Source: Tagaea sp.
GTDB taxonomy: Bacteria > Pseudomonadota > Alphaproteobacteria > CACIAM-22H2
Reading direction: 5' to 3'
Assembly (NCBI GenBank): GCA_965228135.1
Contig: OZ245798.1
Span: forward strand, 1,469,220-1,533,219
Length of the DNA stretch: 64,000 bases
The translations under genes and the position numbers were made by a program. Numbering within the stretch: position 1 is the stretch's first letter; each line of letters opens with the position of its first letter. A model generated the notes under the pieces. That model was not told where the DNA came from and made no database searches. It saw only the letters and a program-made list of their open reading frames with translations. Shown here one piece after another: positions 5,244-55,682 of this stretch.

Positions 5244-5750
5244 GTCCGGCACGTCGAGTTTTTCGATTCGGATGTCGAAATTGCCGGACCACGTGGCCCA
5301 TCGTTACAGAATCGACATCGGGCCGCTTTCTTCCGCTTACCAAAGGAACCCGCAATTCGTTACATGATCGCGTTCCGCGAAACCGACGGACAGCTCAAGG
5401 ACCGCAACAACTTCCGGAACTCGTACGCTTATTGGGGGCTTGGGGCGCCTGCATCATTGCACTCCATGCGACGAGTCATCTCGTCAGCGGCGCCGGTCTG
5501 CAGCCGCGCTCCACCGCGACGACCGCCCGTATGCGTAACGACGAATTTATCGTTCGGGACGGCCCTTTCGACGATACCAAGGAACAGCGCACGGGATCCT
5601 TCGTGATGCCCCCCGATCCGGATGCGGCTCTTGGCCGGGCGGACTTCTCTGTCTCTCGCGTGACGGTCGGCGCGGCGGGATTCGAGTCCGAAGCGGCATC
5701 GTCATAACCGTAAAGCCGAGGCCAAGATGGAGCGCTTCGACGCCGTGACG

Positions 5751-6179
5751 TCACAACTTTGGCGGTGGAGGCGCCGACGTCGGGACCGACGCGATGTGCA
5801 TTCTATCCAGCATCGCCTGAAGGTGCGCGACGGCGGCATCCGACAGCACGAGATACGCGCGACGCCGGTCGCGCGTATCCGCCTCGCGCTGAATCACACC
5901 AAGTCGAATCAAATCATAGATACGCCTCAAAGACGTCGTCTGCGTCCCCCCCGAAGCCAGGCAAAGGCTCGACACCGAAATTCTACGCCCCCGCAGCATC
6001 GACAAATAGAGATCCAACATCATGAACCATGAGTGATCGCGAAATGCGCCGCTCGGCCAAGGTCCATTTTGAGTATCCCGCACGCTTAGCAACGCTTCGA
6101 GTTGCGAAACACGTCTAAAATTGTCCTCGACGCTCATGTCACAACCAGTTCGAATCGATCGTAAGAGATTTCCGCCCAC
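5751..6179 (-). CDS. Winged-helix (MarR-like) transcriptional regulator
   Basis: ISVSSLCLASGGTQTTSLRRIYDLIRLGVIQREADTRDRRRAYLVLSD is a typical MarR recognition-helix plus wing with DRRR. Low-GC region. Alternative start at M15 (nt 6137). Confidence 0.55.
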   Translation of the reverse strand: MGGNLLRSIRTGCDMSVEDNFRRVSQLEALLSVRDTQNGPWPSGAFRDHSWFMMLDLYLSMLRGRRISVSSLCLASGGTQTTSLRRIYDLIRLGVIQREADTRDRRRAYLVLSDAAVAHLQAMLDRMHIASVPTSAPPPPKL

Positions 6180-6188
6180 GCCTTCGAC

Positions 6189-6662
6189 TTATTGCGGGAG
6201 GGGAACGAAGATATCGGCCATCGAACTCCGTACGAGACGAACCGGGAATGATTTTTTCCCCAAGTCTTCGTCGAAGATGCGTTTGACGTCCGAAAGCGAG
6301 CGCGCTTCGACCGCGAAAATATAGAAGTCGTGAAACGCACCCCGCTCGATCTTCGGCGACTTCAAACCGTTTTCGTATGCGACATTCGCGCGATCGAAAT
6401 CCTCGAAGAACCCAAACTCGCGAGTACATATAGGAATCGAACGCATATCGCCGACATGTCCCACCGGTCTCGTCACCGTGAACTTGAAATCGCCGTCGAC
6501 AGCCTCATGCACGGCCCAGTTATCGAGATCGAAAAACCAGCCGCTCAATGAGAGGGGAATATTGGCGCCATGCCGATGCTCCAACACGTAGAACTCCCGT
6601 TTGCGGCGGAGGATCCGAACGTTAAAGCCGATCGCTTTTGTAAGCCTTACAAGAATACGCAT
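6189..6662 (-). CDS. Hypothetical protein (157 aa), no recognisable motifs
   Basis: Intact ORF in the low-GC island, 9 nt upstream of the MarR-like gene and 116 nt downstream of the FlaF-like gene (operon-like). Confidence 0.45.
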   Translation of the reverse strand: MRILVRLTKAIGFNVRILRRKREFYVLEHRHGANIPLSLSGWFFDLDNWAVHEAVDGDFKFTVTRPVGHVGDMRSIPICTREFGFFEDFDRANVAYENGLKSPKIERGAFHDFYIFAVEARSLSDVKRIFDEDLGKKSFPVRLVRSSMADIFVPLPQ

Positions 6663-6778
6663 ACGGCCCTTGCGCGGAACCCGGGGTCTTGCGGAGATGT
6701 TCTCGTGCCGCGGGATATTCGGATTGAGAACGTCGATCCGGCGATCATCGCATGACGACTTTTGGATAGATTAACGGG

Positions 6779-7162
6779 CTATCCGGATGGCGAGGCTTCC
6801 GGCTGCGGCTCCAAACTCAATCCCTCCATAACAATCCTGTTGATCGACGCCAGGAAGTCGACGTCCGTTTCCGAGTACTGCCGAATTGCGGCGTTCGATA
6901 TCCCATTGACGACGACGGCAAGCTCCGCGACCAGTTTCTTCGTCGCGGCGGGCAACCTGTTGTCCTGATGGGTCACATCCAAAGCGAACGCATTCCAAAC
7001 CTCGCGGTTGTGCTGAACCGCGTCTAAAAACGATGCGAGCGACTGCGGATCCGTGGCCCCGAACCCCTTCTTCGCCGCGATCAGCTTCTCATTCAGCCGA
7101 TCGAGAAGAAGGTATTCCCGCCTACGTGCCGGCATCGCCTCCCACTCCTCACGTCCGAACAT
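6779..7162 (-). CDS. flaF: FlaF-family protein (flagellin translation regulator homolog), orphan copy
   Basis: Matches the FlaF family pattern: RREYLLL near the N-terminus, NREVWNAFALDV...DNRLP...KKLVAELAVVV, and DVDFLASINRIVMEGL near the C-terminus. GGGAGG SD upstream of the Met at 7162; the listed ORF extends to 7222. Confidence 0.5.
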   Translation of the reverse strand: MFGREEWEAMPARRREYLLLDRLNEKLIAAKKGFGATDPQSLASFLDAVQHNREVWNAFALDVTHQDNRLPAATKKLVAELAVVVNGISNAAIRQYSETDVDFLASINRIVMEGLSLEPQPEASPSG

Positions 7163-7289
7163 CCATGTTCCTCCCGGTTTCCTTCCGAAGCTCGTTTGTA
7201 GGTGACGCCATCCGCGCCACACTTCTTCGACAACGATCGGTCTCAGCCGCGCACCAAAGCGGGGCGCATCGCCCGAAGGAGATCGACAC

Positions 7290-7560
7290 CGAAGCCAGCA
7301 ACACTTGGTTTATTATTATTTTTTCTTTACATCGTCATTTTTTTACCATCTTTTTTTAGACGACCTTCGACAGAGAGCATCGCCAAACCACTCCACCCCG
7401 CCTTATGTCAATCAACGCGGGACCGATACCATCGGTGTGCGCAAGCGAAACCAAGCCCGGATTCGTCTAAAAATTTTAAACATAATCCCGCAGACCAAAG
7501 AATACATATTCCACGCGCGAAAGAGCGTTTTCATGCAAGCGGTCCAATTCTGAGGGTCGT
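7290..7560 (-). promoter_or_regulatory. AT-rich putative promoter/5' leader region upstream of the FlaF-like operon
   Basis: Very AT-rich tract (tattattattttttctttacatcgtcatttttttaccatctttttttag) in otherwise GC-rich DNA, with no credible coding frame. Confidence 0.3.
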
Positions 7561-7698
7561 CTCGCTCGGGCGCGAAAGGCGATTCGCGATTTGGGAGCGA
7601 AAATGCATGCCAGTGATGGTGAAGCTCCAACGCACGAGATTTTTTCCGATCGATCGTCGGATCAAATCGACTGCGTGTCGGGAAGCGTTGCGCGCTCA

Positions 7699-7992
7699 TC
7701 AACGCATCTTCACCCATTCCATGTCGATCCGCGTTCGCACTGAAAGCTCTGTCCCGGTTGGCGCCGCGTGAAATCGCAAAATCTGAAAGGGCTTACGGAA
7801 AACCAATACCGCCGACGCGGAGCGAACCGCGACGATCCGACGCCAGCCGAGATACGACAACAGCTCGTCGAGTGTTCGCATGACATCCTCGACCTTGCCA
7901 TCGACCTCCAAGGTTCCGATCTCGTCCCTCCGCAGCAGGAACGACTCCAACCAGGCCGGCTGTCGGACAATCGCTTTGGAAGCTAAAGACAT
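7699..7992 (-). CDS. Hypothetical protein (97 aa)
   Basis: ORF whose start overlaps the 3' end of the 411-aa gene by 10 nt (coupled); low-GC island. Confidence 0.4.
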   Translation of the reverse strand: MSLASKAIVRQPAWLESFLLRRDEIGTLEVDGKVEDVMRTLDELLSYLGWRRIVAVRSASAVLVFRKPFQILRFHAAPTGTELSVRTRIDMEWVKMR

Positions 7993-9218
7993 TTTCCATC
8001 CGACTGGCTGTTCAAAGTCACGTTAATTCTGGTCAACATCTCTTCGAGCTCTTCAGTCGTCAAACGCTTTGCCACGGCGGCCCCCGTATAGCGCTGAAAG
8101 ATGCTTGAGCAGTGCCGTAACGCCATCGAGCAGTACCCAAGAACCCAGTAATACTTATCGACATTCCCGAGAAAATTCCGGAACGCAGCGGGCTTTCCCT
8201 CGGACATCAGCTGTCGATGGCTATCGTTGTACTTCTTGAACACTTCGATCATTTGCTGGGAAACGGTCCGTAGCTTTTCGCGGACGGAGGACTTGAACAT
8301 TCGTTGTTGCTCCAGGCGGGACCGGTCCGGCCGATCCTTGGGCTCCGATGCCGCCGAAACAAGCCAATCCAACAGCGCTTCGATGCCCGGCCGCGCTTTC
8401 TCGAAATTCACGCGATAGAAGGCAATTCCTTTCCATCCTTCGATCACCGATCTTGCGCTTGAGCTTGATATGCCCAGCGCGCCGAGAAACACCTCCGCGT
8501 CCGATTGCTCCGGATTCCAGAGCGAGTCGAGGAACGCTTCGGTTCTCTCGTTCACGAGATGGGGGGCCTCAAGCCGCAACGCTCTGGCGACGATCGGACG
8601 AAGCTTCTCCGAGATCACTTCGCGTACCGCCAATTCCTCGTCCTTAGAGATCAAGAAATACGAAGGATCGATTTCATCAAGACAGAATGACAGGGCGCCT
8701 TTCAGCAGGAATGGGTCAAGGGAAGGAATTCCATCGATCGCCTTCAATATGGCGACATCCCGCTCGTAGGCGACGCTGCTTTCCTGCAGATCGAGACCGA
8801 TATGTCGTTTCAACAGCGCCTCGAAATCGCGCTGACGCAGATAGATTCCGTATCCGCCAGAGAACAGATCGCTCGGATCGTGGGGAATATATATAGCCGT
8901 CTCTATCGGCCGCTTGGCCCCCGGTTTCTTCTGCACCGCCACCGCGGCGTTTACTTTCGAGGAACCGCGAGCTTCTTTCGCCGCATCCCAGCTGGCATCT
9001 GATATGTCTCGATCGAAATTCGGGTATTTGAATATCACCGTGTGATTGAGAAAGGTGCATCGGAATATCTTCGCGGCGGCGGGAACGTCGTTTGATTTGA
9101 TCAAATTCAACGCAACCGACGCGCCGCCGTTGCATATCTGATCGAGAAGCGGCGACACAAAACGTCTCGCCTTAGCGCCGCTTGCCCCCCCTGTCTGGCT
9201 CACTTCATTCGGCGACAT
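7983..9218 (-). CDS. Hypothetical protein (411 aa), no recognisable catalytic motifs
   Basis: Long uninterrupted ORF in the low-GC island with protein-like composition, downstream of the receiver-domain gene. Confidence 0.5.
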   Translation of the reverse strand: MSPNEVSQTGGASGAKARRFVSPLLDQICNGGASVALNLIKSNDVPAAAKIFRCTFLNHTVIFKYPNFDRDISDASWDAAKEARGSSKVNAAVAVQKKPGAKRPIETAIYIPHDPSDLFSGGYGIYLRQRDFEALLKRHIGLDLQESSVAYERDVAILKAIDGIPSLDPFLLKGALSFCLDEIDPSYFLISKDEELAVREVISEKLRPIVARALRLEAPHLVNERTEAFLDSLWNPEQSDAEVFLGALGISSSSARSVIEGWKGIAFYRVNFEKARPGIEALLDWLVSAASEPKDRPDRSRLEQQRMFKSSVREKLRTVSQQMIEVFKKYNDSHRQLMSEGKPAAFRNFLGNVDKYYWVLGYCSMALRHCSSIFQRYTGAAVAKRLTTEELEEMLTRINVTLNSQSDGKCL

Positions 9219-9334
9219 AATGGTGCGCTTCTCGTACTGGATTTTTATTAGTCACTGTATATTTACTATCGATACACTGGGGGCGAGTTGAATCGCAACT
9301 AGTCTGTTGGGCCCGGAACGGAAGGAAGCCAAAA

Positions 9335-9766: not shown

Positions 9767-10342
9767 CGCGTCGAAGCGGTTTGTACGCGCCGGCCTTCTG
9801 CCAGATCAGTTCAAATGTCGGAATTGCACCATCAGGGCAGATGATCTGCGGGATTCAGTATCAAAACTTAGTTCAATATCGACGAACAATTCGATCGCCT
9901 CGCAAATAACGTCGCATTTTTCAATTCATCGCCGGTCGTCGGAACGCGCGGCGCGATATGATTGTGTTGTTGTCGGACGTCTTGTCGGTCTGGCTTCGCG
10001 CCATCGGCATCGAGGGACCGCCGGCGATGAAGATACCAAAGTCTCCGGCAATTGCTTGCTCATCAAAGGACTGAAGACGATCGAACGATTGATCCAAGCC
10101 AAGTACTCCCCTGACGTCGCCATTCGGCCCTTCAGTTTGGATTGAATCTTTTTCATTCGAGACCGACGGCAGCTCATTCTTACGTTCGACGGCCTCGGCA
10201 ATCCGAGTAGCGGAGTAATAAGAGATCGTGCGCCTATTTGATGGATACAATTCTTCGCAGCGCTCATCAGTTACGCTTCAGCCAATTGGCATGAACTTAA
10301 AATGTTGCGATTTGGTAGGCTTCGTCTCTCGTGGAGAACAGA

Positions 10343-12604
10343 ATGTCTGGGCTGCTTTCGCGTCTACGTATTTCGCTCCAAGTATCGCTTATCGGTATCG
10401 TCGGAGTACTGGGTCTGGTCGCGGTCGGCGCGATCTATTTCGTGGGAAGCGCCAATCAGCAACGTACGCAAGCCTTCGCCGATCGGCAGGGCGCCCTCGA
10501 CGATCGGCTGAAAGCCCTCGACATCGACCTGTTGCAGACACGCCGCCACGAGAAGGACTTTTTGCTCCGGCGCGAGGAGACTTACGTCGCGCGTCACGCC
10601 GCCGCCCAGCAAGCGGCGGCCAAGAATCTCGCCGCGATCCTGTCGGGCGCAAGTGACGCCGAACTTCGCGCGGACGCCCAGAAGGTGCAAGCGGGCCTTG
10701 ATCTGTACCGCCAGCAATTCGCCACCGTCGTCGCCGAGCAGACGAAACTCGGCTTGAACGAGAGTTCCGGCCTGCAAGGCACGCTGCGCCGATCGGTGCA
10801 GGCGGTCGAAGCCGCACTCGCGCGCCACGACTTGCCGCGCCTGGCGGTCACGATGCTGATGATGCGCCGGCACGAGAAGGACTACATCCTCCGCGGCGCA
10901 GCAAGCTACGGCGAAGATATGAAGAAACGCGCGGCCGAGTTCGCGGCCGCCTTGCCCGCCGCCAATCTGCCAGCCGCCGAACGCGACCAAATCGTCCAGC
11001 TGATGGACGCCTACCACCGCGATTTCGCGGAATTCATGTCGACCGATCAGAAACTCCGTGCCGACATACGCAAATTGTCGGAGGCCTACGCGGCGCTCGA
11101 ACCCGAACTCGATCGGATGGCAAAGCGTATCGTTTCGGCGCAGGAAGTCGCGCTCGCCGAGCTCGCCGCAAATCGCGAAGCGACGGCAGCGACGCTCGGG
11201 ACGACGATCGCGATCGTGACGCTGCTCGTCGCACTGCTCGCCTTCGTCATCAGCCGCGGCATCGTCCGGCCGGTGACGTCGCTGACCGGCACGATGGCGC
11301 GCCTCGCCGCCGGCGATCTCGATGTCGCGATCGACGGTGCCGCGCGCAAGGACGAGTTGGGCGCTATGGCGCGCTCGGTCGAGGTCTTCAAGGAAAACGC
11401 GATGGAAGCGCGCCGACTGCGCGCCGAGCAAGCGCGCGCGGCCGAAGAAGCCGAACGGCAGAAGAAACAGGCGCTGATGGATATGGCCGACACGGTCGAA
11501 CGCGAGACCGCCAACGCGCTCGCCGCGATTGCGAAGAATACGCTCCAGGTCAATGGCGCAGCCGAAAGCATGTCGAGTCTGGCGCAAGAAGTGACGATGG
11601 ATTCGCAGGCCGTAGCCGCCGCCTCGGAAGAGGCGCTGGTGAACGTGCAAACAGTCTCTTCGGCGGCCGAGGAACTTTCCGCCTCTATTCGTGAAATTGC
11701 GACGCAAGTGGCGCGCGCCTCCAGCGTGACGAAGGGCGCCGTCGAAAGCGGCGAAAAAGCGCGCACGACGATCGGTTCGCTGTCCGAGGCGGTTGCGCGC
11801 ATCTCGGAGGTCGCTAAGTTGATCGGTCAGATCGCCGGACAAACGAATTTGCTGGCGCTCAACGCCACGATCGAAGCCGCACGTGCGGGCGAAGCCGGCA
11901 AGGGATTCGCGGTGGTCGCTTCGGAGGTGAAAAACCTCGCCACGCAGACGGGCCGCTCGACAGAAGATATCGACCGCCAAGTTGCGGAAATCCGCACCGC
12001 GACGGATGCCTCCGTGGCAGCCGTTAGCGAGATCGGCGATCGCATCCGCGAAATCGATTCCGTCGCTACGGCGATCGCCTCGGCGATGGAGGAGCAAGGT
12101 GCGGCGACACAGGAGATTGCGAGAAACGTGGGCCAGACGGCGGACGCTGCGCGCGAGGTCTCCTCGAAGATCCAGAATGTCAGCCGGGAGGCGGATAACG
12201 TAGGCGCACGCGCGAGCGAGGTACGCGGCGCGATCGGAGGCGTCGGCAGAAGCCTGGAAGAGTTGAAGCGTATTCTCGTGCGGGTCGTGCGCACCTCCAC
12301 CGCCGACGCCGACCGGCGCAAGCACGTACGCCATCCGGTCTCGGCGAAGATCGATGTCTCCGACGGCGCCGGCAAAAGAATCGATGCGGTGCTCGTCGAC
12401 GTATCGCTTGGCGGCGCCCATTTCCGCACAGCGTCGACGCTCAAGCGCGACGAGCGCGGCACGATCCGATTCGACGGATTGGCTTCGCCGATCGCCTTTG
12501 TCGTGCGCCTGCGCGAGGCCGACGGGGCGGTACATGTCGAGTTCCCGGCGGGTGCCGCGGGCGAGGATTTCGGCGCTTGGCTTAGCCAGCGCAGTGCGGC
12601 CTAG
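10343..12604 (+). CDS. Methyl-accepting chemotaxis protein with C-terminal PilZ (c-di-GMP-binding) domain, Tlp1-like
   Basis: TM1, periplasmic region with duplicated RRHEKD(F/Y)(L/I)LR motif, TM2, HAMP, MCP signalling domain, then C-terminal RRKHVR...DVSLGGA PilZ motifs. ATG at 10343 preceded by a GGAG SD; the listed GTG at 10331 is in frame. Confidence 0.85.
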
Positions 12605-29965: not shown

Positions 29966-31084
29966 ATGAAAATCGTCGCCATCCATCCCTTCATCCTGCA
30001 TCTGCCGCTTACTTCGGATTCGATTTCCGATTCGACGCATTCGATCACCCATTGGGGCGTGGTCGGCGCCAAGATCGTCACGACCGACGGGCTGGAAGGC
30101 TACGGCTTCACCGGTACGCATGCCCATTTGGCGTCGGACCGGCTGATCACGGCTTGCATCAAGGAATGCTACGCGCCGCTGCTGATCGGCGAGGACGCCA
30201 ACGACCATCAACGCCTGTGGACGAAGCTCGCGCGCAATCCCGCACTTCAATGGGTCGGGCGTGCCGGCATCACGCATCTGGCGCTGGCCGCGATCGACGT
30301 CGCGATCTGGGATTTGAAGTCGAAAAAGGCCGGCGTGCCGCTCTGGAGCTATCTCGGCGGTGCGCGGACCAAGGCGCTGGAAGCCTACAACACCGATATC
30401 GGCTGGCTATCCTTCGATCTCGACACACTGTTACGCCTCTCGGCCAAGGCGGTCGAGGAGGACGGCTTCACGCGCCTGAAAATCAAGGTCGGTCACGACG
30501 ATCCGAATGTCGATATCGCGCGCCTGACGGCCGCGCGCAAACGCGTGGGCACGAAAACGCGCATCGCGATCGACGGCAACGGGAAATGGGATTTGCCGAC
30601 CTGCCAACGCTTCTGCGCCGCGGCGCGCGATCTCGACATCTATTGGTTCGAGGAACCGCTCTGGTACGACGACGTCGCCAGCCACGCCAAGCTCACACGC
30701 AATACGTCGATCCCGATCGCGCTGGGCGAACAGCTTTATACGCTCGACGCGTTCCGTAGCTTCATCGATGCGGGCGCCGTCGCCTATGTGCAGCCGGACG
30801 TCACGCGCCTGGGCGGCATCACTGAATATATCCAGGTCGCCGATCTCGCCCTCGCCCATCGCCTGCCGGTCGTGCCGCATGCCGGCGAGATGAGTCAGGT
30901 GCACGTGCATCTCAGCTACTGGCATCCGGCCTCGACGATCCTAGAATATATCCCCTGGATCAAAGACCATTTCGCCGAGCCCGCGAATGTCGTCGGCGGC
31001 GTCTATAAGCGCCCCGAACAACCGGGGGCGAGCACCACGCCGCTTCCCGCCAGCATCGAACGCTACGGCAAAAGTTTGAGTTGA
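29966..31084 (+). CDS. Enolase-superfamily enzyme (MR/MLE family racemase/dehydratase)
   Basis: MR_MLE domains, KxK and metal-binding D/E/D pattern. Confidence 0.8.
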
Positions 31085-31151
31085 AATGCCGACAAAGGAT
31101 CGCCGCCTCGATGCGGGGGGCATCAGCGCGCCCTGAACACGAACCGTAAAG

Positions 31152-31187
31152 AAAAAAGGCCTCGGTCGGAAACCGGGGCCTTCTGTT
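31152..31187. terminator. Bidirectional intrinsic terminator hairpin
   Basis: GGCCTCGG-tcggaaa-CCGGGGCC stem-loop, flanked by AAAAAA on the left (U-tract for the minus strand) and TTCTGTT on the right. Confidence 0.5.
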
Positions 31188-31196
31188 CGGACGCGC

Positions 31197-31345
31197 CGAT
31201 GGTGGGCGAAGTCGGGCTCGAACCGACGACCTACTGATTAAGAGATGTCAAGCGGCATTGATATTCCTAGGGATTCCGCCGTCCAAACCTCACAGGCCCC
31301 CATTGACCGCCAAGGGAGATTCGCGAGACGACGGAAAGCGAACGG
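31197..31345. repeat. Repeat copy A (~150 nt; tRNA-3'-fragment plus adjacent arm)
   Basis: Aligns colinearly at ~70% identity, with a 10-nt indel in the T-arm, to 56040-56165. Shared blocks: cgaaccgacg, ctgat.aaga..tgtca, ttgat.ttcctaggg, ccaagg.agattc.cg...cgacggaaa. Confidence 0.55.
31200..31244 (-). other. tRNA 3'-terminal fragment (anticodon-loop region through CCA); no matching 5' half
   Basis: The minus-strand reading ...CTCTTAATCAGTAGGTC-GTCGG-TTCGAGC-CCGAC-TTCGCCC-A-CCA has a perfect T-arm, the acceptor 3' strand, a discriminator and CCA. The upstream sequence cannot form the acceptor 5' strand, the D-arm or the anticodon stem. Confidence 0.55.
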
Positions 31346-31463
31346 CCACGTTACGCGATGAACGTCTCTTGAAGATGGCGCCAAATGGGCGAACATCGGC
31401 ATTGGGTCACATGACCGCGTTGCTGCGCGCGAAGTTGCGCCGCCCGATGATGATTCGCAGCGC

Positions 31464-32474
31464 CTAAAGAACGTAAATTCCGCGCCGGAGTGCGACGGCA
31501 TTGCGCGCGGCCGTCGCGGCCGGCGGCAACGCCTCCGGCGCGCGGCGCGCATTTTCCGACAGATCGCGCATCGCCTCGGCCAGAAGATCCTGCATCCAAA
31601 GTATGCCGGAATCATTGCGCAGCTTCGCGTGCACATGCAGCGCGATATCGATCGAAGGAATCTCGAACGGAATTTCGAGCAAACTGAAATCGCCGTTCGC
31701 GTTGACGCGGCAGGCGATCGAATACGGAAACAGCGCCGCGAATTGGGAGCTGCGCACGAGTTCGGGGATCGTAGTAAAATTCTCGATCCGCGCTGAGCTA
31801 CGCCGCACGGCGCCGCATTGGTTGAGCCGGGCATCGACCATCTGAAACCCGGTCGCGCGGATGGTTACTTCGACGAAATTGAGTTGTGAAAATTCGGCGA
31901 TCGTCAGCTTGTGGCCCGCCATCGGATGGCCCGATTGAACGAGGCAAACGAAGCGATCTTTGAGCAGCAATCTGCTGGCGAATTCGGCATCGTCGAGATC
32001 GGGAAGAAATCCCATCGCGATATCGACCTGCCCATTGCGCAAGGCAGCGGCGATGCTCGTTGCCTCGAGTTGAACGGTGCGAACACGCACCGACGGCGCA
32101 ACATCCTGCAATCGCTGTAGGATCTGCGGCAGGCAGTAGAACTCCGACACATCCGACATGGCGATGTTGAACGTCCGGTTCGACGTCTCGGGCACGAAGA
32201 CGCCGTAATTGAGCAGCGTCGTGCTGGCGATGCGCATCGCCGTGCTGAACGGCTCGTAGAGTTCCTTGGCCGCCTCGGTCGGCTCCATCTTGTTGCCGAC
32301 ACGCAGAAAAAGCGGGTCCATGAAATGGTCGCGCAGCCGTTTCAGCGAATGGCTGACCGCCGGCTGAGTCAGGCCCAAGCGCGAACCGGCCCCCGAAATG
32401 CTGCGCTCGTCCCAAATGGCGACGAACACCTTCATCAGGTTCAGATCGAAGTGATTGATGTTGCTTCGATTCAT
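31464..32474 (-). CDS. LysR family transcriptional regulator
   Basis: HTH_1 (GLTQPAVSHSLKRLRDHF) plus a LysR substrate-binding domain. Start trimmed to MNRSNINHFDL. Confidence 0.8.
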   Translation of the reverse strand: MNRSNINHFDLNLMKVFVAIWDERSISGAGSRLGLTQPAVSHSLKRLRDHFMDPLFLRVGNKMEPTEAAKELYEPFSTAMRIASTTLLNYGVFVPETSNRTFNIAMSDVSEFYCLPQILQRLQDVAPSVRVRTVQLEATSIAAALRNGQVDIAMGFLPDLDDAEFASRLLLKDRFVCLVQSGHPMAGHKLTIAEFSQLNFVEVTIRATGFQMVDARLNQCGAVRRSSARIENFTTIPELVRSSQFAALFPYSIACRVNANGDFSLLEIPFEIPSIDIALHVHAKLRNDSGILWMQDLLAEAMRDLSENARRAPEALPPAATAARNAVALRRGIYVL

Positions 32475-32618
32475 ACGACCGCGCCCCCCGCTCGAAACCC
32501 TGTTATTGGGCGAACGGACGGCACCGGATCGGCGGCACCCGTTCAAGCGGACGCCCGGTACTTAACAATTACCGTGCCAACCCTTTGTCGCCCGTGCGAC
32601 GGGTGCGATTGTAGTCGA

Positions 32619-33908
32619 TTAGGTCCGCCCTGCAAAACGGCAAGCGATAGCGCACACCAGTTCGTCGCCGCCTTTCGGCCCGACGATCTGGAGCGAAACC
32701 GGACCGTCGGCGATCGGCATCAGGGGCATCGCCAGGGCCGGATGCCCGGAAAGATTGAACGGCCGAACGAGACGCGTGAGCGGCACGGCCGTGCGGTTTT
32801 CCCGCCCCTGTTCGAGTGTGGGCACGGGAACCGGCAAGGTCGGCAGCACCAGCGCATCGACCGAAGCGAAAAGCGCATCAAGCTCGTCCGAGAACGCTTT
32901 GCGCGCCGCCTCGGCCGTGTCGATCATCGCCGCCGTCACTTCGGCGCCGCCCTTCATCCGCTCGCCGACATCCGCGCCAACCAGACCCGACGCCAGCAAA
33001 TGACCTGCCGCCCGCCAGGTCTCGACATTGATCATCGTCAAACCGGCGGCGAAGGCGGAATCCATATGCGCGAATGTCGCCTCGATCGTCTCCAACCCCG
33101 ACGCGGCGATCGCCGAATTCACACGCGCTTCGATCTCGGGCGTCGCGACGCCCTTCAGCACTCCGATCCGGCCTTTGCCCGGCGTCACCGGCCCGAAACC
33201 GGGGCAGAGAATTTCCATCGCGCGCACGATATGCGCGAGATCGCGCGCGAACGGCCCCACGCAATCGAGCGTGGATTCGCGCGGCAGCACGCCGCGCCGC
33301 GACACGCGCCCGAAAGTCGGCTTCATCCCCCAGACGCCGCAACACGCCGCGGGGATGCGGATCGAACCGCCCGTATCCGTCCCGATGCCAATCTCCGCCG
33401 AACCTTCGGCGACGGCGGCGGCACTGCCGCTCGACGAGCCGCCGGGAACGCGGTCTGGAAAATTGGGATTGCGCGGCGTGCCCGCATAATCGTTGATCCC
33501 GGTGACGCCGAAAGCCAGCTCGTGCAGCACCGTCTTGCCGACGATGCGGCACCCCGCCTTCAGCAGAAGATCGACGACCGCCGCGTTCGCCGCCGCGGGC
33601 GGCGCATCGGCAAGCGCCCGGCTGCCCGCGCGCGTGGGATAGCCCGCGATATCGATCGTATCCTTCACCGCGACGCGAACGCCGCTCGCGGAACCCAACT
33701 CCAACCGTTCGACGAAAGCCGTCACTCGCGCGCCCCTTCCACGATCTCCGGTCCTTGTGCGGCGAGGAAGACCGCCTCGGCCAAGAACGCCGTTTCCATC
33801 AACCCCGCCGCCAGCGTCTTGGCGCCGTCCTTCGCCGCGACGCGCAGCATCGGCCGGCCGAAGGAATCGCGCCATTGCGACACGATCGTCACGTCGAGAT
33901 CGCGCCAC
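32619..33908 (-). CDS. Amidase signature (AS) family enzyme; N-terminus uncertain
   Basis: GGSSSGSAAAVA signature, Ser-cisSer-Lys region (GVRVAVKDTIDIAGYPT). The first ~58 codons after the ATG at 33908 are R/G-rich and unlike amidase N-termini. A GTG at 33725 overlaps the stop of a small upstream ORF (GTGA). Confidence 0.7.
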   Translation of the reverse strand: MARSRRDDRVAMARFLRPADAARRGEGRRQDAGGGVDGNGVLGRGGLPRRTRTGDRGRGARVTAFVERLELGSASGVRVAVKDTIDIAGYPTRAGSRALADAPPAAANAAVVDLLLKAGCRIVGKTVLHELAFGVTGINDYAGTPRNPNFPDRVPGGSSSGSAAAVAEGSAEIGIGTDTGGSIRIPAACCGVWGMKPTFGRVSRRGVLPRESTLDCVGPFARDLAHIVRAMEILCPGFGPVTPGKGRIGVLKGVATPEIEARVNSAIAASGLETIEATFAHMDSAFAAGLTMINVETWRAAGHLLASGLVGADVGERMKGGAEVTAAMIDTAEAARKAFSDELDALFASVDALVLPTLPVPVPTLEQGRENRTAVPLTRLVRPFNLSGHPALAMPLMPIADGPVSLQIVGPKGGDELVCAIACRFAGRT

Positions 33909-33943
33909 CGATAGACTTGGCCCATGACGGTCTTGTGGGCCAT
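33722..33943 (-). CDS. Possible small ORF (74 aa) or displaced amidase N-terminal frame
   Basis: MAHKTVMGQVYRW...GPEIVEGARE has non-repetitive composition. Its ATG shares a base with the SnoaL-like stop (TGATG) and its TGA overlaps the amidase GTG (GTGA). Confidence 0.25.
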   Translation of the reverse strand: MAHKTVMGQVYRWRDLDVTIVSQWRDSFGRPMLRVAAKDGAKTLAAGLMETAFLAEAVFLAAQGPEIVEGARE

Positions 33944-34500
33944 CAAGGCTTCATCAACACGGACGCCGACGGAAAATCGAACGCCCAACCCGCCGGCAGC
34001 GGCGCGACGAACACGTTCTCGGTGCGCGTGCGCGTGATCTTCCATTGCCCGTCCGGCTCCTTGCGGAACGTGTTGTTGAGACGCGAGGAGCGCAGCAGCG
34101 CCTTGCCGTCGGAGAAGATCCAAGGCTGCATATGCACCCACTGCCCGTCGGCCGTGTCGCCATGCACATGGATTTGCTCGGACGTCAGGTAGTGACAGTT
34201 CAACAACAAGGCCGGATCGCGCTTCTGGCCCCAGAACGCCTCGAAATGCTTGCGCAAAGCCGCTTTGCCGACGGCCCGGCCGAACTGGTTGTTATAGTAC
34301 TCGCCGACCCCTTCCCAGACCGCGTCTTCGGTATAGAGCGCGAGGATGAGTTCGACCCGCCGCGCGTCGTCGGTCACGCCGTATTCGGGATTGGGCGTGT
34401 CGCACAAGAACATATAGCGCGCCTGGATGCGGCGGATATCGGCTTCCGCTTCCAATATCTCGATGCGTTTGACGAGCGATTCGAGCGTGGGGGTCGTCAT
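33943..34500 (-). CDS. NTF2/SnoaL-like fold protein (ring-hydroxylating dioxygenase beta-subunit-like)
   Basis: SnoaL_4-like pattern. ~60% identical paralog at 54790..55353. Confidence 0.6.
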   Translation of the reverse strand: MTTPTLESLVKRIEILEAEADIRRIQARYMFLCDTPNPEYGVTDDARRVELILALYTEDAVWEGVGEYYNNQFGRAVGKAALRKHFEAFWGQKRDPALLLNCHYLTSEQIHVHGDTADGQWVHMQPWIFSDGKALLRSSRLNNTFRKEPDGQWKITRTRTENVFVAPLPAGWAFDFPSASVLMKP

Positions 34501-42352: not shown

Positions 42353-43219
42353 ATGCCCCACACCGCGAAACAGCCATTTGCGCACGCCGTCAGCGAAGCG
42401 ACGCGCGACGACGCGCCCGAGCGATTGATCGAGGCGCGTTATCGCGCCGCACTCGACGGCAATCCGCGATGGAATGCGACGATCGCCGGATTGCTCGCGC
42501 ATCGTTCGGTGCGCGGCTACGCGAACGCGCCTTTGCCCGAGGACACGCTGGAGACGCTGATCGCGGCGGCGCAATCGGCGCCGACATCCTCCAATCTGCA
42601 AGTCTGGAGCGTCGTCGCCGTGGCCGATCCGGCGCGCAAGGCGCGTTTGTCGATGTTCGCGGGCAACCAGAAGCATATCGTCGACGCGCCGTTGTTCCTG
42701 GTCTGGCTCGCCGATCTCAGCCGTTTGCGCGCGTTGGGCGATGCGCGCGGCGTCACGACCGAAGCCCTCGATCATCTGGAGATGTTTCTGACCGGCGCGA
42801 TCGACGCCGCACTCGCCGCGCAGAACGCCGTCGTGGCGGCCGAAAGCCTTGGGCTCGGCACGGTCTATATCGGCGGCATGCGCAACAAGCCCGAGGACGT
42901 CGCGGCGGAGTTGAAGCTGCCGGCGAATGTGTTCGCGGTGTTCGGGCTTTGCGTGGGCGTGCCCGATCCCGCGATCGTCACCGGGATCAAACCGCGCCTG
43001 CCGCAGCGCGCGGTCATGCATCGCGAAACCTACGATGCCGCGGCCAGCGCCGATATCGGCGCCTACGACGCGGCGATGCAGGCATTCCAAGGCGAGCAGA
43101 AGGTCAGGCAAGTGCCGTGGAGCGACCAAGCGCTGCGCCGCGTCGCAGGGCCGCAATCGCTGTCCGGTCGCGATCGGTTGCGCGCGGCGCTGCATAATCT
43201 CGGCTTCCTTTTGCGTTAG
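42353..43219 (+). CDS. Nitroreductase-family oxidoreductase (TcpB/NfsA-like)
   Basis: Nitroreductase fold (RRSVRGY...PTSSNLQ...); divergent from the monooxygenase gene. Confidence 0.8.
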   Translation: MPHTAKQPFAHAVSEATRDDAPERLIEARYRAALDGNPRWNATIAGLLAHRSVRGYANAPLPEDTLETLIAAAQSAPTSSNLQVWSVVAVADPARKARLSMFAGNQKHIVDAPLFLVWLADLSRLRALGDARGVTTEALDHLEMFLTGAIDAALAAQNAVVAAESLGLGTVYIGGMRNKPEDVAAELKLPANVFAVFGLCVGVPDPAIVTGIKPRLPQRAVMHRETYDAAASADIGAYDAAMQAFQGEQKVRQVPWSDQALRRVAGPQSLSGRDRLRAALHNLGFLLR

Positions 43220-43220
43220 G

Positions 43221-43895
43221 TCAGAGGGCCGGCACCTTCAACTCGCCGACGGTGCCGTCGATATGGAGCTTGGCGCCGGTGAGCGCTTGGAGTTCGTCGA
43301 GCGTCATGCCGCCAAGCTTCTCGCGCAGCACGAATTTGCCGCCGACGATGTCGATCACGGCAAGGCTCGTATAGACCCGCGTGACGCAGCCCACACCGGT
43401 CAACGGCAAGGTGCAGCGCTCGACCAGTTTGGGCTTACCGTCCTTGGTCACATGCTCGGTGATCACCGCCACGCGCTTGGCGCCGTGCACGAGATCCATC
43501 GCCCCGCCGACGGCCGGCACGCCTTTGGGGCCGGTGCTCCAATTCGCCAGATCGCCGCTTTGCGCGACTTGATAGGCGCCGAGGATCGCGACATCCAAAT
43601 GCCCGCCGCGCACCATCGCGAAGCTGGTCGCGTGGTCGAAAAAGGCCGAGCCCGGCTTCAACGTCACGGCTTTTTTGCCGGCATTGATCAGATCCCAGTC
43701 TTCTTCGCCCGCTTTGGGTGCCGGCCCGAAATCCAAGATGCCGTTCTCGGTGTGGAAGATCGCTTGGCGCCCCGGCGGCTGATATTGCGCCACCATCTCC
43801 GGGAAGCCGATCCCGAGATTGACGTAAGCGCCGTCGTCGATGTCCTGCGCCGCGCGCCAGGCGATCTGGGCGTTGGAAAGTTTTTCGGCGGTCAT
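43221..43895 (-). CDS. 3-oxoacid/3-oxoadipate CoA-transferase subunit B
   Basis: CoA_trans family, active-site Glu region (FHTENG). Start MTAEKL at 43895 overlaps the subunit A stop (ATGA); the listed ORF fuses both subunits. Confidence 0.8.
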   Translation of the reverse strand: MTAEKLSNAQIAWRAAQDIDDGAYVNLGIGFPEMVAQYQPPGRQAIFHTENGILDFGPAPKAGEEDWDLINAGKKAVTLKPGSAFFDHATSFAMVRGGHLDVAILGAYQVAQSGDLANWSTGPKGVPAVGGAMDLVHGAKRVAVITEHVTKDGKPKLVERCTLPLTGVGCVTRVYTSLAVIDIVGGKFVLREKLGGMTLDELQALTGAKLHIDGTVGELKVPAL

Positions 43896-44599
43896 GGGTA
43901 GCGCGCCCCCGCGCGGTTCAAATCTTCTTCCTGCGCCGGGTTCGGCACTTCGACGATCTTCTGGACGAAGATGCCGGGCGTGACGACGCTTTCGGGCGCG
44001 ATCCCGCCGGGCTCGACGAGCTTCGAGACCTGCACGATTGCCGTGGCCGACGCCATACACATCAGCGGGCCGAAGTTCCGAGCGGCCGCGCGATAGGTGA
44101 GATTGCCATGCGTGTCGCCGATCTCCGCCTTTACCAGGGCGAAATCCGCTTTCAGCCAGCGTTCCTGCACGTAAGGCCGGCCGTCGAACTCGGCGACCGG
44201 CTTGCCCTTGGCGAGATCGGTGCCGTAGCTCGTGGGCGTATAGAACGCCGGGATGCCCGCCCCGCCCGCGCGAATACGTTCGGCGAGCGTGCCTTGCGGG
44301 ACGAGTTCCAACTCGATCTTGCCGGCAAGGTAACGCTCGGTGAACACGACCGGATCGGCCGAGCGCGGAAAGGAGCAGATGAGTTTCGCCACGCATCCCG
44401 CTTCGATCAGCGCGGCGAGGCCGACATGGCCGTTCCCCGCGTTGTTGTTGACGACGGTGAGGCCCTTGGGCCCCTTGTCGATCAGCGCATGGATCAGCTC
44501 GATCGGCGAGCCGGACCCGCCGAACCCGCCGATCATCACCGATGCGCCATCGCCGATCACCGAGACGGCGGCGGCGGCGGATTTCGATATTTTGTCCAT
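43892..44599 (-). CDS. 3-oxoacid/3-oxoadipate CoA-transferase subunit A
   Basis: CoA_trans family N-terminal subunit (GGFGGSGSP). Confidence 0.8.
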   Translation of the reverse strand: MDKISKSAAAAVSVIGDGASVMIGGFGGSGSPIELIHALIDKGPKGLTVVNNNAGNGHVGLAALIEAGCVAKLICSFPRSADPVVFTERYLAGKIELELVPQGTLAERIRAGGAGIPAFYTPTSYGTDLAKGKPVAEFDGRPYVQERWLKADFALVKAEIGDTHGNLTYRAAARNFGPLMCMASATAIVQVSKLVEPGGIAPESVVTPGIFVQKIVEVPNPAQEEDLNRAGARYP

Positions 44600-44642
44600 A
44601 TCGTCTCGTTAGGCGAAACGCGGCGATCGGCGCAGACACGAG

Positions 44643-44659
44643 ATATCCATTTTGGATAT
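44643..44659. promoter_or_regulatory. Perfect inverted repeat ATATCCA-N3-TGGATAT (candidate operator) in a divergent promoter region
   Basis: 7-bp arms with a 3-nt spacer, then an 8-bp GC hairpin (GGAGGCGG-agcc-CCGCCTCC) at 44669-44688, between the CoA-transferase and maleylacetate reductase genes. Confidence 0.3.
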
Positions 44660-44727
44660 GATTCGGCGGGAGGCGGAGCCCCGCCTCCGCTAGGCTCGGG
44701 TCGCTTCGGCCAAGAGCGATTGCCGCC

Positions 44728-45804
44728 ATGACATCGGGGAGCGACGTGAAGGAATTCGTCTACGAAGCGCTGCCGTCGCGCGTGATCTTCGGCTGGGGCG
44801 CCACCGCGCGCCTAACGGCCGAAGTCGAGCGACTGAATCTGAAACATATTCTCGTCCTATCGACGCCCGCGCAAACCGGCACCGCGCGCACGGTCGCCGC
44901 CGCGTTGGGCAACCGCGTCGCGGCGACCTTCGACGGCGCGGCGATGCACACGCCCGTCGACGTGACGAATCGCGCGATGGAGATCGTGCGCGCGAACGGC
45001 ATCGACGCCACGCTCGCCATCGGCGGCGGATCGACGATCGGCCTCGGCAAGGCCATCGCCTTGCGCACCGATCTGCCGCAGATCACGCTGCCCACGACCT
45101 ATGCCGGGTCGGAGATGACGCCGATTCTCGGTCAAACCGAAAACGGCGTGAAAACGACGATCCGCGACCCGCGCGTGCTGCCGGAAATCGTTATCTACGA
45201 TCCGGCCCATACGCTGTCGCTGCCCGTGGCCCTTTCCTCGACCAGCGGGCTCAATGCGATCGCGCATGCCGTCGAAGGTCTTTACGCCAAGGACGGCAAT
45301 CCGATCGTGTCGCTGATGGCGCAGGACGGCATTCGCGCCCTTGCGTCCGCGTTGCCGGTGCTGATCGAACGCCCCGCCAATCGCGACGCGCGCGAGAAGG
45401 CGCTGTATGGGGCCTGGCTTTGCGGCGCCACGCTCGGCGCGGTCGGCATGGCGCTGCATCACAAGCTATGCCACGTGCTCGGCGGCACGTTCGATCTGCC
45501 GCACGCCGAAACCCATAGCGTCATCCTGCCATATGCCGTCGCATACAACGCCGGTGCGGCACCCGATGCGATGCACGCGATCGAACGCGCGTTGGGTGCG
45601 GGTCCCGCCGCATCCGCGTTGCAAACGCTCGCCAAGCGGATCGGCGCGCCGCTCTCCCTCGCGGCGATCGGCATGCCCAAGGACGGCATCGACAAAGCCG
45701 CCGATCTCGCCGTCGCCAATCCCTATTGGAACCCGCGCCCCATCGACCGCGCGTCGATCGCCGCTTTGATCGCCGACGCCTTCGCCGGAAAGAGCCTCCC
45801 ATGA
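44728..45804 (+). CDS. Maleylacetate reductase (iron-containing alcohol dehydrogenase family)
   Basis: Fe-ADH fold, GGGS(T/V)IG NAD motif. Stop overlaps the next start (ATGA). Confidence 0.8.
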   Translation: MTSGSDVKEFVYEALPSRVIFGWGATARLTAEVERLNLKHILVLSTPAQTGTARTVAAALGNRVAATFDGAAMHTPVDVTNRAMEIVRANGIDATLAIGGGSTIGLGKAIALRTDLPQITLPTTYAGSEMTPILGQTENGVKTTIRDPRVLPEIVIYDPAHTLSLPVALSSTSGLNAIAHAVEGLYAKDGNPIVSLMAQDGIRALASALPVLIERPANRDAREKALYGAWLCGATLGAVGMALHHKLCHVLGGTFDLPHAETHSVILPYAVAYNAGAAPDAMHAIERALGAGPAASALQTLAKRIGAPLSLAAIGMPKDGIDKAADLAVANPYWNPRPIDRASIAALIADAFAGKSLP

Positions 45805-46679
45805 CCGCCAACGGATATTTCACGCGTGAAAACTCCGCCGAAACCGTGATCGCGCGGATGAAGGATTGTCCCGACGCGCGTCTGGTGCAAGTGATGTCGG
45901 CGCTGATCCGTCATCTGCATGCCGCCGTCGACGAGGTCGGGTTGACGATGAAGGAATGGGAAGCGGCGATCGCCTTCCTGACCAAGACCGGCCACACCTG
46001 CACCGAATGGCGGCAGGAATTCATCCTGCTTTCCGACATCCTGGGCGCTTCGATGTTGGTCGACGCGATCAATCACGATCGCGGCGGCGGCACCACGGAA
46101 TCGACCGTGCTGGGCCCGTTCCATGTCGCCCAGGCGCCGATGCGCGCGATGGGTGACGATATTTGTCTCGACCATGTCGGCAGCCCCATCGTCGTCCACG
46201 GCAAAGTCCTCGATCCCGACGGCAAACCGATCGCGGGCGCGCTGCTGGACGTATGGCAGGCGAACGGCGACGGATTCTACGACGTGCAGCAAGCGGGCAT
46301 CCAGCCGCCGATGAATCTGCGCGGCCGCTTCACGACCGGCGCCGACGGGCGCTTTTGGTTCAAGACGATCGAGCCGCGCTTCTACCCGATCCCCGATGAC
46401 GGGCCGGTCGGCAAGCTGTTGCGCGCGATGGGCCGCCACCCCTTCCGTCCTGCGCATATCCATTTCATCGTCGAAGCGCCGGGCTTCGAGAAGCTGACGA
46501 CGCATCTTTTCCCGCGTGGCGCCGAGTATCTCGATTCGGACGCGGTGTTCGGCGTGAAGGATAGCCTGATCGCCGATCTGGCCCCGGCCGACGATCCGAC
46601 GCTCGCCGCCGCGTGCCGCATCGCCAACCCGTTCACGGCGATGGAATGGGAATTCCGCTTGAGCCGCGAAGCGCGCTGA
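45801..46679 (+). CDS. Intradiol ring-cleavage dioxygenase (hydroxyquinol 1,2-dioxygenase-like)
   Basis: Catechol-dioxygenase N-terminal domain plus intradiol catalytic domain (Fe ligands in ...FRPAHIHF...). Start MTANGY at 45801. Confidence 0.8.
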   Translation: MTANGYFTRENSAETVIARMKDCPDARLVQVMSALIRHLHAAVDEVGLTMKEWEAAIAFLTKTGHTCTEWRQEFILLSDILGASMLVDAINHDRGGGTTESTVLGPFHVAQAPMRAMGDDICLDHVGSPIVVHGKVLDPDGKPIAGALLDVWQANGDGFYDVQQAGIQPPMNLRGRFTTGADGRFWFKTIEPRFYPIPDDGPVGKLLRAMGRHPFRPAHIHFIVEAPGFEKLTTHLFPRGAEYLDSDAVFGVKDSLIADLAPADDPTLAAACRIANPFTAMEWEFRLSREAR

Positions 46680-46688
46680 GGGACGAAA

Positions 46689-46976
46689 ATGCTCTACGCC
46701 ATCCATTGTCTCGACAAGCCCGGCGCGCTGGCGCTGCGTCTTGCCAATTACGACGCGCATAAAGCCTATCTCGGCGCGGCACCGCTCAAGACGCTGGTGT
46801 CCGGACCGCTGGTCGCGGCCGATGGCGAAACAATGATCGGCAGTCTGCTGATCGTCGAAGCCGCGAGCCGGACGGATGTCGAGGCCTTCAACCGCAACGA
46901 CCCGTTCGCCAAGGCCGGCGTATGGGAACGCGTCAGCATCGAAGCGTTTTTGAAGCGCGTCGACAACCGCATCTAA
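46689..46976 (+). CDS. YciI-like protein
   Basis: 95 aa, YciI/Dabb-like fold. Confidence 0.7.
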   Translation: MLYAIHCLDKPGALALRLANYDAHKAYLGAAPLKTLVSGPLVAADGETMIGSLLIVEAASRTDVEAFNRNDPFAKAGVWERVSIEAFLKRVDNRI

Positions 46977-54789: not shown

Positions 54790-55353
54790 TTACTCCTGCA
54801 TCAGGATCGAATCCTTGGGGATGTTCTCGGCCCAGCCATTGGGCAGCGGCGCCACGAAGACGTTCTCCGTGCGATAGCGCGACATCTTCCACACGCCATC
54901 GACCTTGCGGAATTTGTTGTTGAGGCGGCTGGAGCGCAGCACCGAGCTGCCGTCGCTGAAGATCCAGGGCTGGAAATGCACCCACTGTCCCGTCGCCTCG
55001 TCGCCGCGCACATGGATTTGCTCGGAAGTGAGATAGTGGCAGTTGAGCAGCATCGCGGGTTCGCGCGGCTCGAAGAAGCCGGAGAAATGCTTGAGGAGCC
55101 CCGCACGGCCCACGCTGCGGCCGAACTGGTTCGTGTAATACGGGCCGACACCTTCCCAGATCGCGTCGTCGGTATAGAGCGACAGGATCGCGTCGATGCG
55201 CTCCTTGACGCCTTGGCTGCCCGGTTCGGGCATCGGCACGTCGCACAGGAACATATAACGCGCGACGATCCGGCGGATGTCGCCTTCGGCGGAAAGATCG
55301 GCGACCTGCTTTTGGAGCGCGACGATCGCGGCGGCCATTTCTTGGGTGTTCAT
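54790..55353 (-). CDS. NTF2/SnoaL-like fold protein (paralog of 33943..34500)
   Basis: ~60% identical to the first copy (shared ARYMFLCD, LLNCHYLTSEQIHV, TENVFVAPLP). Confidence 0.6.
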   Translation of the reverse strand: MNTQEMAAAIVALQKQVADLSAEGDIRRIVARYMFLCDVPMPEPGSQGVKERIDAILSLYTDDAIWEGVGPYYTNQFGRSVGRAGLLKHFSGFFEPREPAMLLNCHYLTSEQIHVRGDEATGQWVHFQPWIFSDGSSVLRSSRLNNKFRKVDGVWKMSRYRTENVFVAPLPNGWAENIPKDSILMQE

Positions 55354-55388
55354 CGGACGACCTCGGGTAATACTGGTGGAAGCCGCGA

Positions 55389-55682
55389 TCAAACGGCGTC
55401 GACGAAAGTGATCTTCACGTCTTCGGCCAGGAAGCCGTCCTTCAGGCGCAGAAACTCCTGAAAGGCGGGTGTGGCGCCATGTGCTTCGAGTGCGGCCTGA
55501 TCGCGCCAACGCTCGTAGAACACGATCGTCGCGGCGTCGCCCGCGTCGCGATAAACCTTGTATTCGATGCAGCCCGCCTCGGCCCGCGACGACTTCGCGA
55601 GCCCGGCGACGAGATCAAGGAACCCTTGCGTCGACGCGGGCTTGGTGCGCGCGAAGGCGATCAGCGTTTTCTCTGACGACAT
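55389..55682 (-). CDS. ABM domain monooxygenase-like protein (paralog of 47902..48204)
   Basis: 97-aa ABM fold. The listed ORF 55389..56825 is over-extended. Confidence 0.65.
   Translation of the reverse strand: MSSEKTLIAFARTKPASTQGFLDLVAGLAKSSRAEAGCIEYKVYRDAGDAATIVFYERWRDQAALEAHGATPAFQEFLRLKDGFLAEDVKITFVDAV

Follow-up and report, generated by a model that had tools for sequence, protein, structure and literature searches.

What is a piece of tRNA sequence that begins in an anticodon loop and ends at CCA, and how did it come to lie beside an aromatic-catabolic gene cluster? The 45 nucleotides in question, CTCTTAATCAGTAGGTCGTCGGTTCGAGCCCGACTTCGCCCACCA, are read on the minus strand from position 31244 to position 31200 of the 64-kb stretch of DNA analyzed here (the window). 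They correspond to nucleotides 32–76 of tRNA-Lys(CUU) and comprise the anticodon loop, the 3′ strand of the anticodon stem, the variable loop, a complete T-arm, the acceptor 3′ strand, the discriminator A, and CCA. The anticodon loop, C32 to A38, reads CUCUUAA (31244–31238) and contains the anticodon CUU. It is followed by the anticodon-stem strand TCAGT, the variable loop AGGTC, a T-stem of GTCGG/CCGAC in which five of five pairs are Watson-Crick, a T-loop with the consensus sequence TTCGAGC, and the acceptor strand TTCGCCC ahead of the discriminator and CCA. When the fragment alone is aligned to the Rfam tRNA model, it matches positions 31–71 of 71 as a 5′-truncated hit (25.8 bits, E = 3e-4), with the top posterior probability at every column. 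The 45-mer occurs once in the window and is matched in 0 of 100 shuffles, and its T-loop is the sole instance of GGTTCRANYCC in the 64 kb.

The identity of the parent tRNA had been offered tentatively as Lys(CUU) in the first-pass annotation, and alignments bear this out. The fragment, which is also aligned with the attP of a phage discussed below, was aligned with a tRNA-Lys(ctt) gene called by ARAGORN in Shinella, and over positions 32–65 it is identical at 34 of 34 nucleotides to a deltaproteobacterial tRNA-Lys(ctt). That 31200–31244 is the 3′ part of a tRNA-Lys(CUU), from anticodon loop to CCA, is confirmed. The sequence, the Rfam match, and a terminator scan likewise agree with the T-arm, acceptor 3′ strand, discriminator A, CCA, following terminator, and missing 5′ half that the annotation had described.

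The missing 5′ half bears directly on what the fragment is. ARAGORN, run over the whole 64-kb window, found neither a tRNA nor a tmRNA, so that no complete, foldable tRNA is present, and the window is without Rfam matches at gathering scores. Forcing a full-length alignment to the Rfam tRNA model yields 14.4 bits (the gathering score being 29), requires a 37-nt insertion, and is good only from the anticodon loop onward. This forced alignment offers GGGCCUG at ~31299 as an acceptor 5′ strand separated from the fragment by a long intron. The candidate was rejected, as it forms only four Watson-Crick pairs and one wobble, has no D-arm, and is negative with ARAGORN. A D-arm consensus is found nowhere in the window, and permissive thresholds disclose no other tRNA remnants in it. 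A functional tRNA gene was therefore rejected, since no complete cloverleaf with acceptor 5′ strand, D-arm, and anticodon stem is formed, and so was a gene in two pieces, as no 5′ half turned up in any other part of the 64 kb. The acceptor piece of a two-piece (permuted) alphaproteobacterial tmRNA was also considered and rejected; ARAGORN (which includes tmRNAs) and Rfam were negative, a terminator directly follows CCA, and the fragment has a Lys anticodon loop. The local fold at the fragment lacks a cloverleaf and, at z = −0.87, is not more stable than that of shuffles. On the preferred reading given below, the fragment is not a gene, and it would have no function of its own except as half an excision site.

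What remains of the tRNA is well preserved. Since both the T-loop and the pairing of the T-stem are intact, the source of the fragment was a working tRNA, and decay is not evident. Its T-stem stands one compensated pair apart from the GTAGG/CCTAC of the commonest alphaproteobacterial-type phage copies, which speaks for evolution as part of a working tRNA. As a sequence variant (TA at positions 43–44, T-stem GTCGG/CCGAC, and acceptor GGGCGAA/TTCGCCC), it is matched by no sampled gene or phage. The exact 45-mer had 0 matches in 185,579 species genomes and 0 in JGI metagenomes, and its 3′-terminal 25-mer (T-loop to CCA) had 0 in IMG/VR; hence, no parent gene has been seen in these collections.

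The immediate surroundings are simple. An intrinsic-terminator-like element on the minus strand (31148–31182), consisting of a hairpin (31156–31182) and the T-run TTTTTTCTTT, was recognized by terminator scan, fold, and sequence, and its hairpin begins 17 nt past the CCA of the fragment. The simplest view is that it terminated the tRNA gene originally; it would also halt read-through from the neighboring LysR gene. Beyond it, the presumed chromosomal side starts with an enolase-superfamily (mandelate racemase/muconate lactonizing) gene at 29966–31084 on the plus strand, with homologues carrying PF13378/PF02746; it is convergent with the fragment. On the other side, a non-coding spacer of 219 nt on the minus strand (31245–31463) runs from the stop codon of the LysR gene to C32, would represent junction DNA on the presumed element side, and has no database homologue. 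It is followed by the first gene on that side, an intact LysR-family regulator on the minus strand (31464–32474; Pfam HTH_1 and LysR_substrate, with full-length alignment to homologues). The gene is co-directional with the fragment and does not encode an integrase. Its C-terminal tail was entertained as a breakpoint and rejected, as tails are variable in the homologues too.

The DNA upstream of the fragment also contains short repeats. The minus-strand 8-mer CAATGCCG, present in only eight copies on that strand in the 64 kb, occurs three times in 250 nt (31253–31260, 31397–31404, and 31496–31503), with two copies inside the 219-nt spacer and the third within the LysR gene. Three nucleotides beyond the middle copy comes TTCGCCCA (31386–31393), which equals the acceptor strand plus discriminator of the fragment. 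No extended similarity exists among the three segments, and for want of it the stretch CAATGCCG-ATG-TTCGCCCA (31404–31386) was rejected as another att copy with an internal deletion. The repeats are possibly arm-type recombinase binding sites of an element end, or else a chance occurrence.

Central to the reading of the fragment is its 5′ edge. C32 is exactly the nucleotide at which the att core of known copies begins. BLAST searches against annotated plasmids and chromids, and against phages, returned matches that are confined to the 45–47 nt of the fragment, never enter its flanks, and show 82–86% identity. The matches include the Shinella tRNA-Lys(ctt), confirmed by ARAGORN, a 5′-less copy on a Blastomonas plasmid, and a copy in Brucella phage BiPBO1 that likewise has no 5′ half and is separated by 74 nt from the integrase gene upstream of it. 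Aligned with one another, the window, BiPBO1, and Blastomonas fragments have a common start at the C of CTCTTAATCAG. The attB and attP of BiPBO1 have been mapped experimentally to a 46-bp identity core in a lysine tRNA gene (PMC4729917). The window fragment is like this site in the tRNA concerned (Lys, CUU), in the first nucleotide of the identity block (CTCTTAATCAG...), and in its CCA end. It differs in sequence, with 84.8% identity over the BLAST match, and in context, since the BiPBO1 copy adjoins an integrase gene at 74 nt whereas the window is without one.

Viral contigs present the same boundary repeatedly. A pattern scan of IMG/VR for the block recovered 57 copies, on contigs of 47–73% GC (mostly 55–73%). 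Forty-nine of the 57 are 5′-less and start exactly at C32, as does the window fragment, and eight are intact genes. In contrast to the TA of the fragment, CG is found at positions 43–44 in 57 of 57; none of the 57 has the T-stem GTCGG/CCGAC or the acceptor TTCGCCC, and none matches the fragment exactly. In 23 viral loci, an integrase related to BiPBO1 Int is located within ~1 kb of the block, the commonest layout being a tRNA or fragment with an adjacent, convergent integrase gene. Three IMG/VR contigs contain an intact tRNA-Lys(CUU) together with a same-strand fragment copy, and so preserve both ends of a prophage. Fragments with the C32 boundary are demonstrably made by integrase-bearing elements.

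Non-viral collections extend this picture. Of eight metagenomic matches, six are independent tRNA-Lys(CUU) fragments that start at C32 and are followed by a hairpin/T-run terminator, with no homology between the window terminator plus downstream DNA and these metagenomic fragments. Genome contigs were scanned with a relaxed T-arm pattern, and the matches listed were mostly actinobacterial tRNA-Lys(UUU)/tRNA-Met. At least ~29 of the 119 genomic matches listed are 5′-less fragments with the same boundary (tRNA-Lys(UUU)/tRNA-Met, mostly actinobacterial), and an acceptor strand with TTCG is found in none of the relaxed-pattern matches listed.

Some of these loci have features of their own. The same-boundary genomic fragments (at least ~29) come from Actinomycetota and other phyla, and several have common upstream sequence families (e.g., ...gggtccgccCTTTTAATCCG), a pattern of shared sequence which suggests related elements spread across genera. 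Directly downstream of two metagenomic tRNA-Lys(CUU) fragments are IS256/Mutator-family transposase genes (L128:2779–4047 and L129:955–2148); these scar loci therefore appear to attract further insertions.

A recurrent boundary of this kind is well documented. In the Islander collection, a 3′ tDNA fragment was left by 3760 of 3919 mapped islands, and the integration site was anticodon-centred in 2083 (PMC4383910). It is also routine for a partial tRNA gene to be an attR site (PMC9897764), and the attR-type fragments of tyrosine-integrase islands and prophages include an anticodon-centred class (Williams 2002, as cited in PMC4383910).

The exactness of the boundary also weighs on a simpler account, in which the 5′ half of a tRNA-Lys gene was lost by deletion, inversion, or an IS event whose endpoint fell at position 32 by chance. 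In favor of this account, the window contains neither an integrase nor a 5′ half. However, the endpoint equals the att-core boundary to the nucleotide, is common to more than 80 independent fragments, and would be hit by a random endpoint roughly once in 76 cases; moreover, no IS or transposase lies beside the fragment. Truncation of this sort is quite unlikely.

A second alternative holds that the fragment is not a chromosomal end at all, being either the attP copy of an element that spans both sides or a transcribed RNA, small or tRNA-like, that has a terminator of its own. In isolation, the attP copies of the block in BiPBO1 and the Blastomonas plasmid do look identical in kind to the window fragment, and the terminator that follows makes a transcript ending there conceivable. 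Yet attP copies have an integrase within ~1 kb, as BiPBO1 and the 23 viral loci illustrate, whereas the neighbors here are a LysR gene and an enolase-family gene. With regard to an RNA, the minus strand has no promoter-like site ahead of the fragment, the Rfam matches are to a truncated tRNA only, and the fold does not rise above shuffles or show any structure besides the T-arm and terminator. For both variants, the flanks are conserved nowhere. This alternative is very improbable.

Because its 5′ edge agrees with a mapped att core, with phage copies, and with other fragments, the fragment is best read as a displaced end of the attR type, and the integrase-type scar proposed in the first-pass annotation gains from sharing its start nucleotide with 49 of 57 phage or prophage copies and the BiPBO1 core. 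Both intrinsic marks of an attR are found, namely a 3′ tRNA part unable to encode a tRNA and a boundary at a known crossover sublocation. Further support comes from the terminator after CCA, as expected for a native gene end displaced intact, and from synteny with Mesorhizobium on the low-coordinate side, which stops at the gene adjoining the fragment. In all likelihood, then, the fragment is the original 3′ end of a chromosomal tRNA-Lys(CUU) gene.

The events that would have produced it can be outlined as follows. A mobile element, either a temperate phage or an integrative island, would have carried an attP holding its own copy of tRNA nucleotides 32–76. Strand exchange by a tyrosine integrase, inside the anticodon loop, would have recombined this attP with the chromosomal tRNA-Lys(CUU) gene. 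The copy supplied by the element would then make the tRNA gene whole again at one end of the insert, and the last 45 nt of the gene itself, with its terminator and the downstream chromosome still attached, would be pushed to the other end, where they may now be seen at 31200–31244. Under this scheme, the high-coordinate DNA (LysR, amidase, Rieske dioxygenase, etc.) would be the far end of the insert or whatever has replaced it, and the low-coordinate side would be the old chromosomal neighbor.

The side on which the insert would lie follows from geometry. Complete prophage examples read as intact tRNA, element, and then same-strand fragment; the insert is situated upstream of the displaced fragment, in the direction of the tRNA, wherever the integrase sits, and this corresponds to higher coordinates here. 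We infer that an insertion occurred at this locus, with the insert on the high-coordinate side. The same side had been named in the first-pass annotation, which also pointed to an aromatic-catabolic cluster there. The direction probably holds, by analogy with prophages, and gene content upholds the cluster, but neither element nor mobility genes are seen in the 32.8 kb, and there is no compositional break at the fragment; an element still in place, with the cluster as its cargo, is a candidate only.

The interval from 31.3 to 64 kb is an aromatic-catabolic neighborhood. It encodes LysR, an amidase, SnoaL-like proteins, a flavin reductase, a phthalate-dioxygenase-reductase-type protein, the beta and alpha subunits of a Rieske dioxygenase, several ABC transporters, an acyl-CoA-dehydrogenase-like protein, a nitroreductase, CoA transferases, a maleylacetate-reductase-like Fe-ADH, an intradiol dioxygenase, a GMC oxidoreductase, an RpiR regulator, and an M24 peptidase.

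Two details of this neighborhood are worth recording. The segment at 43200–46700 contains 3-oxoacid CoA-transferase subunits, the maleylacetate-reductase-like Fe-ADH (44728–45804), and the intradiol dioxygenase (~45800–46676), and by its predicted gene products it is a lower pathway of the hydroxyquinol/beta-ketoadipate type, downstream of the amidase and Rieske dioxygenase genes. In addition, the SnoaL_4-family genes at 33943–34500 and 54790–55509 share 75–79% DNA identity over ~300 nt (34059–34360 and 54903–55201). From this identity, they appear to be paralogous copies belonging to two different catabolic/transport clusters ~21 kb apart.

A search of the same interval for the element itself was negative throughout. 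A Pfam scan of about 50 genes of the window identified no integrase, transposase, phage, or conjugation gene, and none is present from 31.3 to 64 kb. An integrase profile built from 24 att-linked integrases, which recovers 31 ORFs in viral loci, was run against all 543 stop-to-stop frames of the window and picked out neither an integrase nor the remains of one (best E = 0.13). No cognate intact tRNA-Lys is present in the 32.8 kb of the expected side or anywhere else in the window; in the commonest viral layout, the integrase sits beside the intact tRNA, a position that would fall outside the window here. Nor is the interval foreign in composition: tetranucleotide signatures of the two sides of the fragment correlate at r = 0.979, as against 0.954 and 0.972 between the halves of either side, so there is no break, and this uniformity is accompanied by a lack of mobility genes. 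As a check on plasmid origin, PLSDB was consulted and contained no record that covers the window.

Relatives of the two flanks add further detail. On the low side, the operon is syntenic with Mesorhizobium up to the gene adjoining the fragment, and the enolase-family protein is 87% identical. At the loci in Mesorhizobium and Agrobacterium that carry the enolase-family gene, there is no tRNA at that position, and therefore the low side is not demonstrably the ancestral neighbor of the tRNA; the relatives compared are too distant for an empty-site test. On the high side, the nearest homologues of the adjoining LysR are at most 60% identical and have neither a tRNA nor an integrase nearby. The nearest relatives of LysR adjoin a similar SnoaL/flavin-reductase cluster in a different orientation. 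No conservation of the fragment flanks was found anywhere. The orientation can be described more exactly. In Pinisolibacter and a Logan contig (L192:10001–11530 and L193:4954–6463), LysR is convergent with the SnoaL/flavin-reductase genes, whereas at 31464–34500 of the window it is co-directional with them, with the amidase gene between. Since the orientation differs from that of relatives, the block beside the fragment has been rearranged.

Within an origin as an integration scar, these results can be read in two ways. The fragment may be the distal end of an intact, still excisable element of more than 33 kb, with the aromatic-catabolic cluster as cargo and with the rebuilt tRNA-Lys(CUU) and integrase beyond coordinate 64000. 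This is a serious possibility, though clearly short of an even one. Its geometry fits the complete prophage examples, the genes on the high side are all of accessory type (catabolic, regulator, and ABC-transporter) with no housekeeping genes among them, the 60% identity of the nearest LysR homologue indicates a rare block, homologues of the Rieske dioxygenase gene occur on plasmids and chromids, and the fragment itself is undecayed, with a T-stem of 5/5 pairs and a consensus T-loop. Weighing against it are the complete lack of mobility genes in 32.8 kb, the uniform composition, the partner tRNA that is unseen in the window, and the failure to find the exact 45-mer in the genome collection, which, were the source genome part of that collection with the window alone masked, would mean that its intact copy differs in sequence.

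Alternatively, the insertion may be a former one, its integrase and most of its genes having later been lost or replaced by deletion or rearrangement, such that the fragment is now inert DNA flanked by a convergent gene pair, and the catabolic cluster could have a history separate from that of the element. A fossil of this kind is close to an even prospect. It would account for a window without integrase, remnant, or mobility genes, for the identical genome signature on either side, for the orientation of LysR relative to the SnoaL/flavin-reductase cluster, which points to local rearrangement, and for the TA at positions 43–44 where 57 of 57 phage-borne copies have CG. Against it, decay would be expected over a long time without selection, yet the T-stem and T-loop are unbroken, and TA at 43–44 also occurs in real tRNA-Lys(CUU) genes (locus L015), so it need not be a product of decay. 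Given the scar origin, the intact and fossil forms are nearly equal in probability.

Should the first form apply, a more specific proposal, advanced tentatively and with less confidence than the form itself, is that an intact island of more than 33 kb, inserted in the tRNA-Lys(CUU) gene of a poorly sampled Hyphomicrobiales lineage, has its distal end at the fragment and represents a new catabolic ICE-like element. It is equally tentative that the cargo of such an element would be the amidase, Rieske dioxygenase, and intradiol (hydroxyquinol/beta-ketoadipate-type) aromatic cluster. Of the same doubtful standing is the suggestion that its att core (GTCGG/CCGAC, TTCGCCC) would be one that is present in no current genome, metagenome, or viral collection.

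Several consequences follow for how the locus is described. The fragment should not be annotated as a tRNA gene or as a pseudogene of unknown origin. The junction at 31244/31245 provides a nucleotide-precise candidate boundary of horizontally acquired DNA beside an aromatic-catabolic cluster, and if the partner tRNA and integrase exist in the full genome, the extent of the island and its cargo follow at once.

Other parts of the window contain features of separate interest. At its edge, a 431-aa ORF on the plus strand (124–1419) has ~50% GC against a window average of ~63% and weak matches to AAA_21 and SMC_N ATPases; it could be a horizontally acquired defence-type ATPase. A second low-GC patch (53–55%) on the minus strand at 5750–9220 includes FlaF (6779–7222) and ORFs without Pfam matches, among them one of 411 aa (7983–9218). 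This patch at 5–10 kb was considered as a site for an integrase and rejected, in view of its flagellar content (FlaF) and the lack of a Pfam match for the 411-aa ORF; it is probably a flagellin/flagellar-regulation cluster and not a mobile element. Finally, a methyl-accepting chemotaxis protein encoded at 10331–12604 on the plus strand combines a HAMP domain with a C-terminal PilZ domain, an uncommon fusion whose domain content suggests c-di-GMP input to the receptor.

In its general nature, the fragment belongs to a kind of feature that is already known, produced by a routine mechanism documented thousands of times, and what is specific to it is its sequence variant only. Its resemblance to the displaced 3′ tDNA of Islander-type islands is close, extending from the anticodon loop to the 3′ end with the same orientation logic and with native downstream DNA following, and a length of 45 nt is typical of the class (PMC4383910). 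The difference is one of context, in that the 32.8 kb provided by the window show neither a cognate intact tDNA nor an integrase inside the interval.

The gene content of the neighborhood invites comparison with larger elements as well. Catabolic and other accessory functions are carried by integrative elements in tRNA genes, as exemplified by ICEclc in tRNA-Gly and the symbiosis islands of Mesorhizobium in tRNA-Phe. No transfer or integration module is seen in the window, and membership in this group cannot be claimed for the locus. Elements of the ICEclc type show that a live element may include 33 kb devoid of mobility genes, and the locus may be like them in its general plan, which is that of a large catabolic or accessory cargo with a tRNA gene at one end and a short 3′ repeat at the other.
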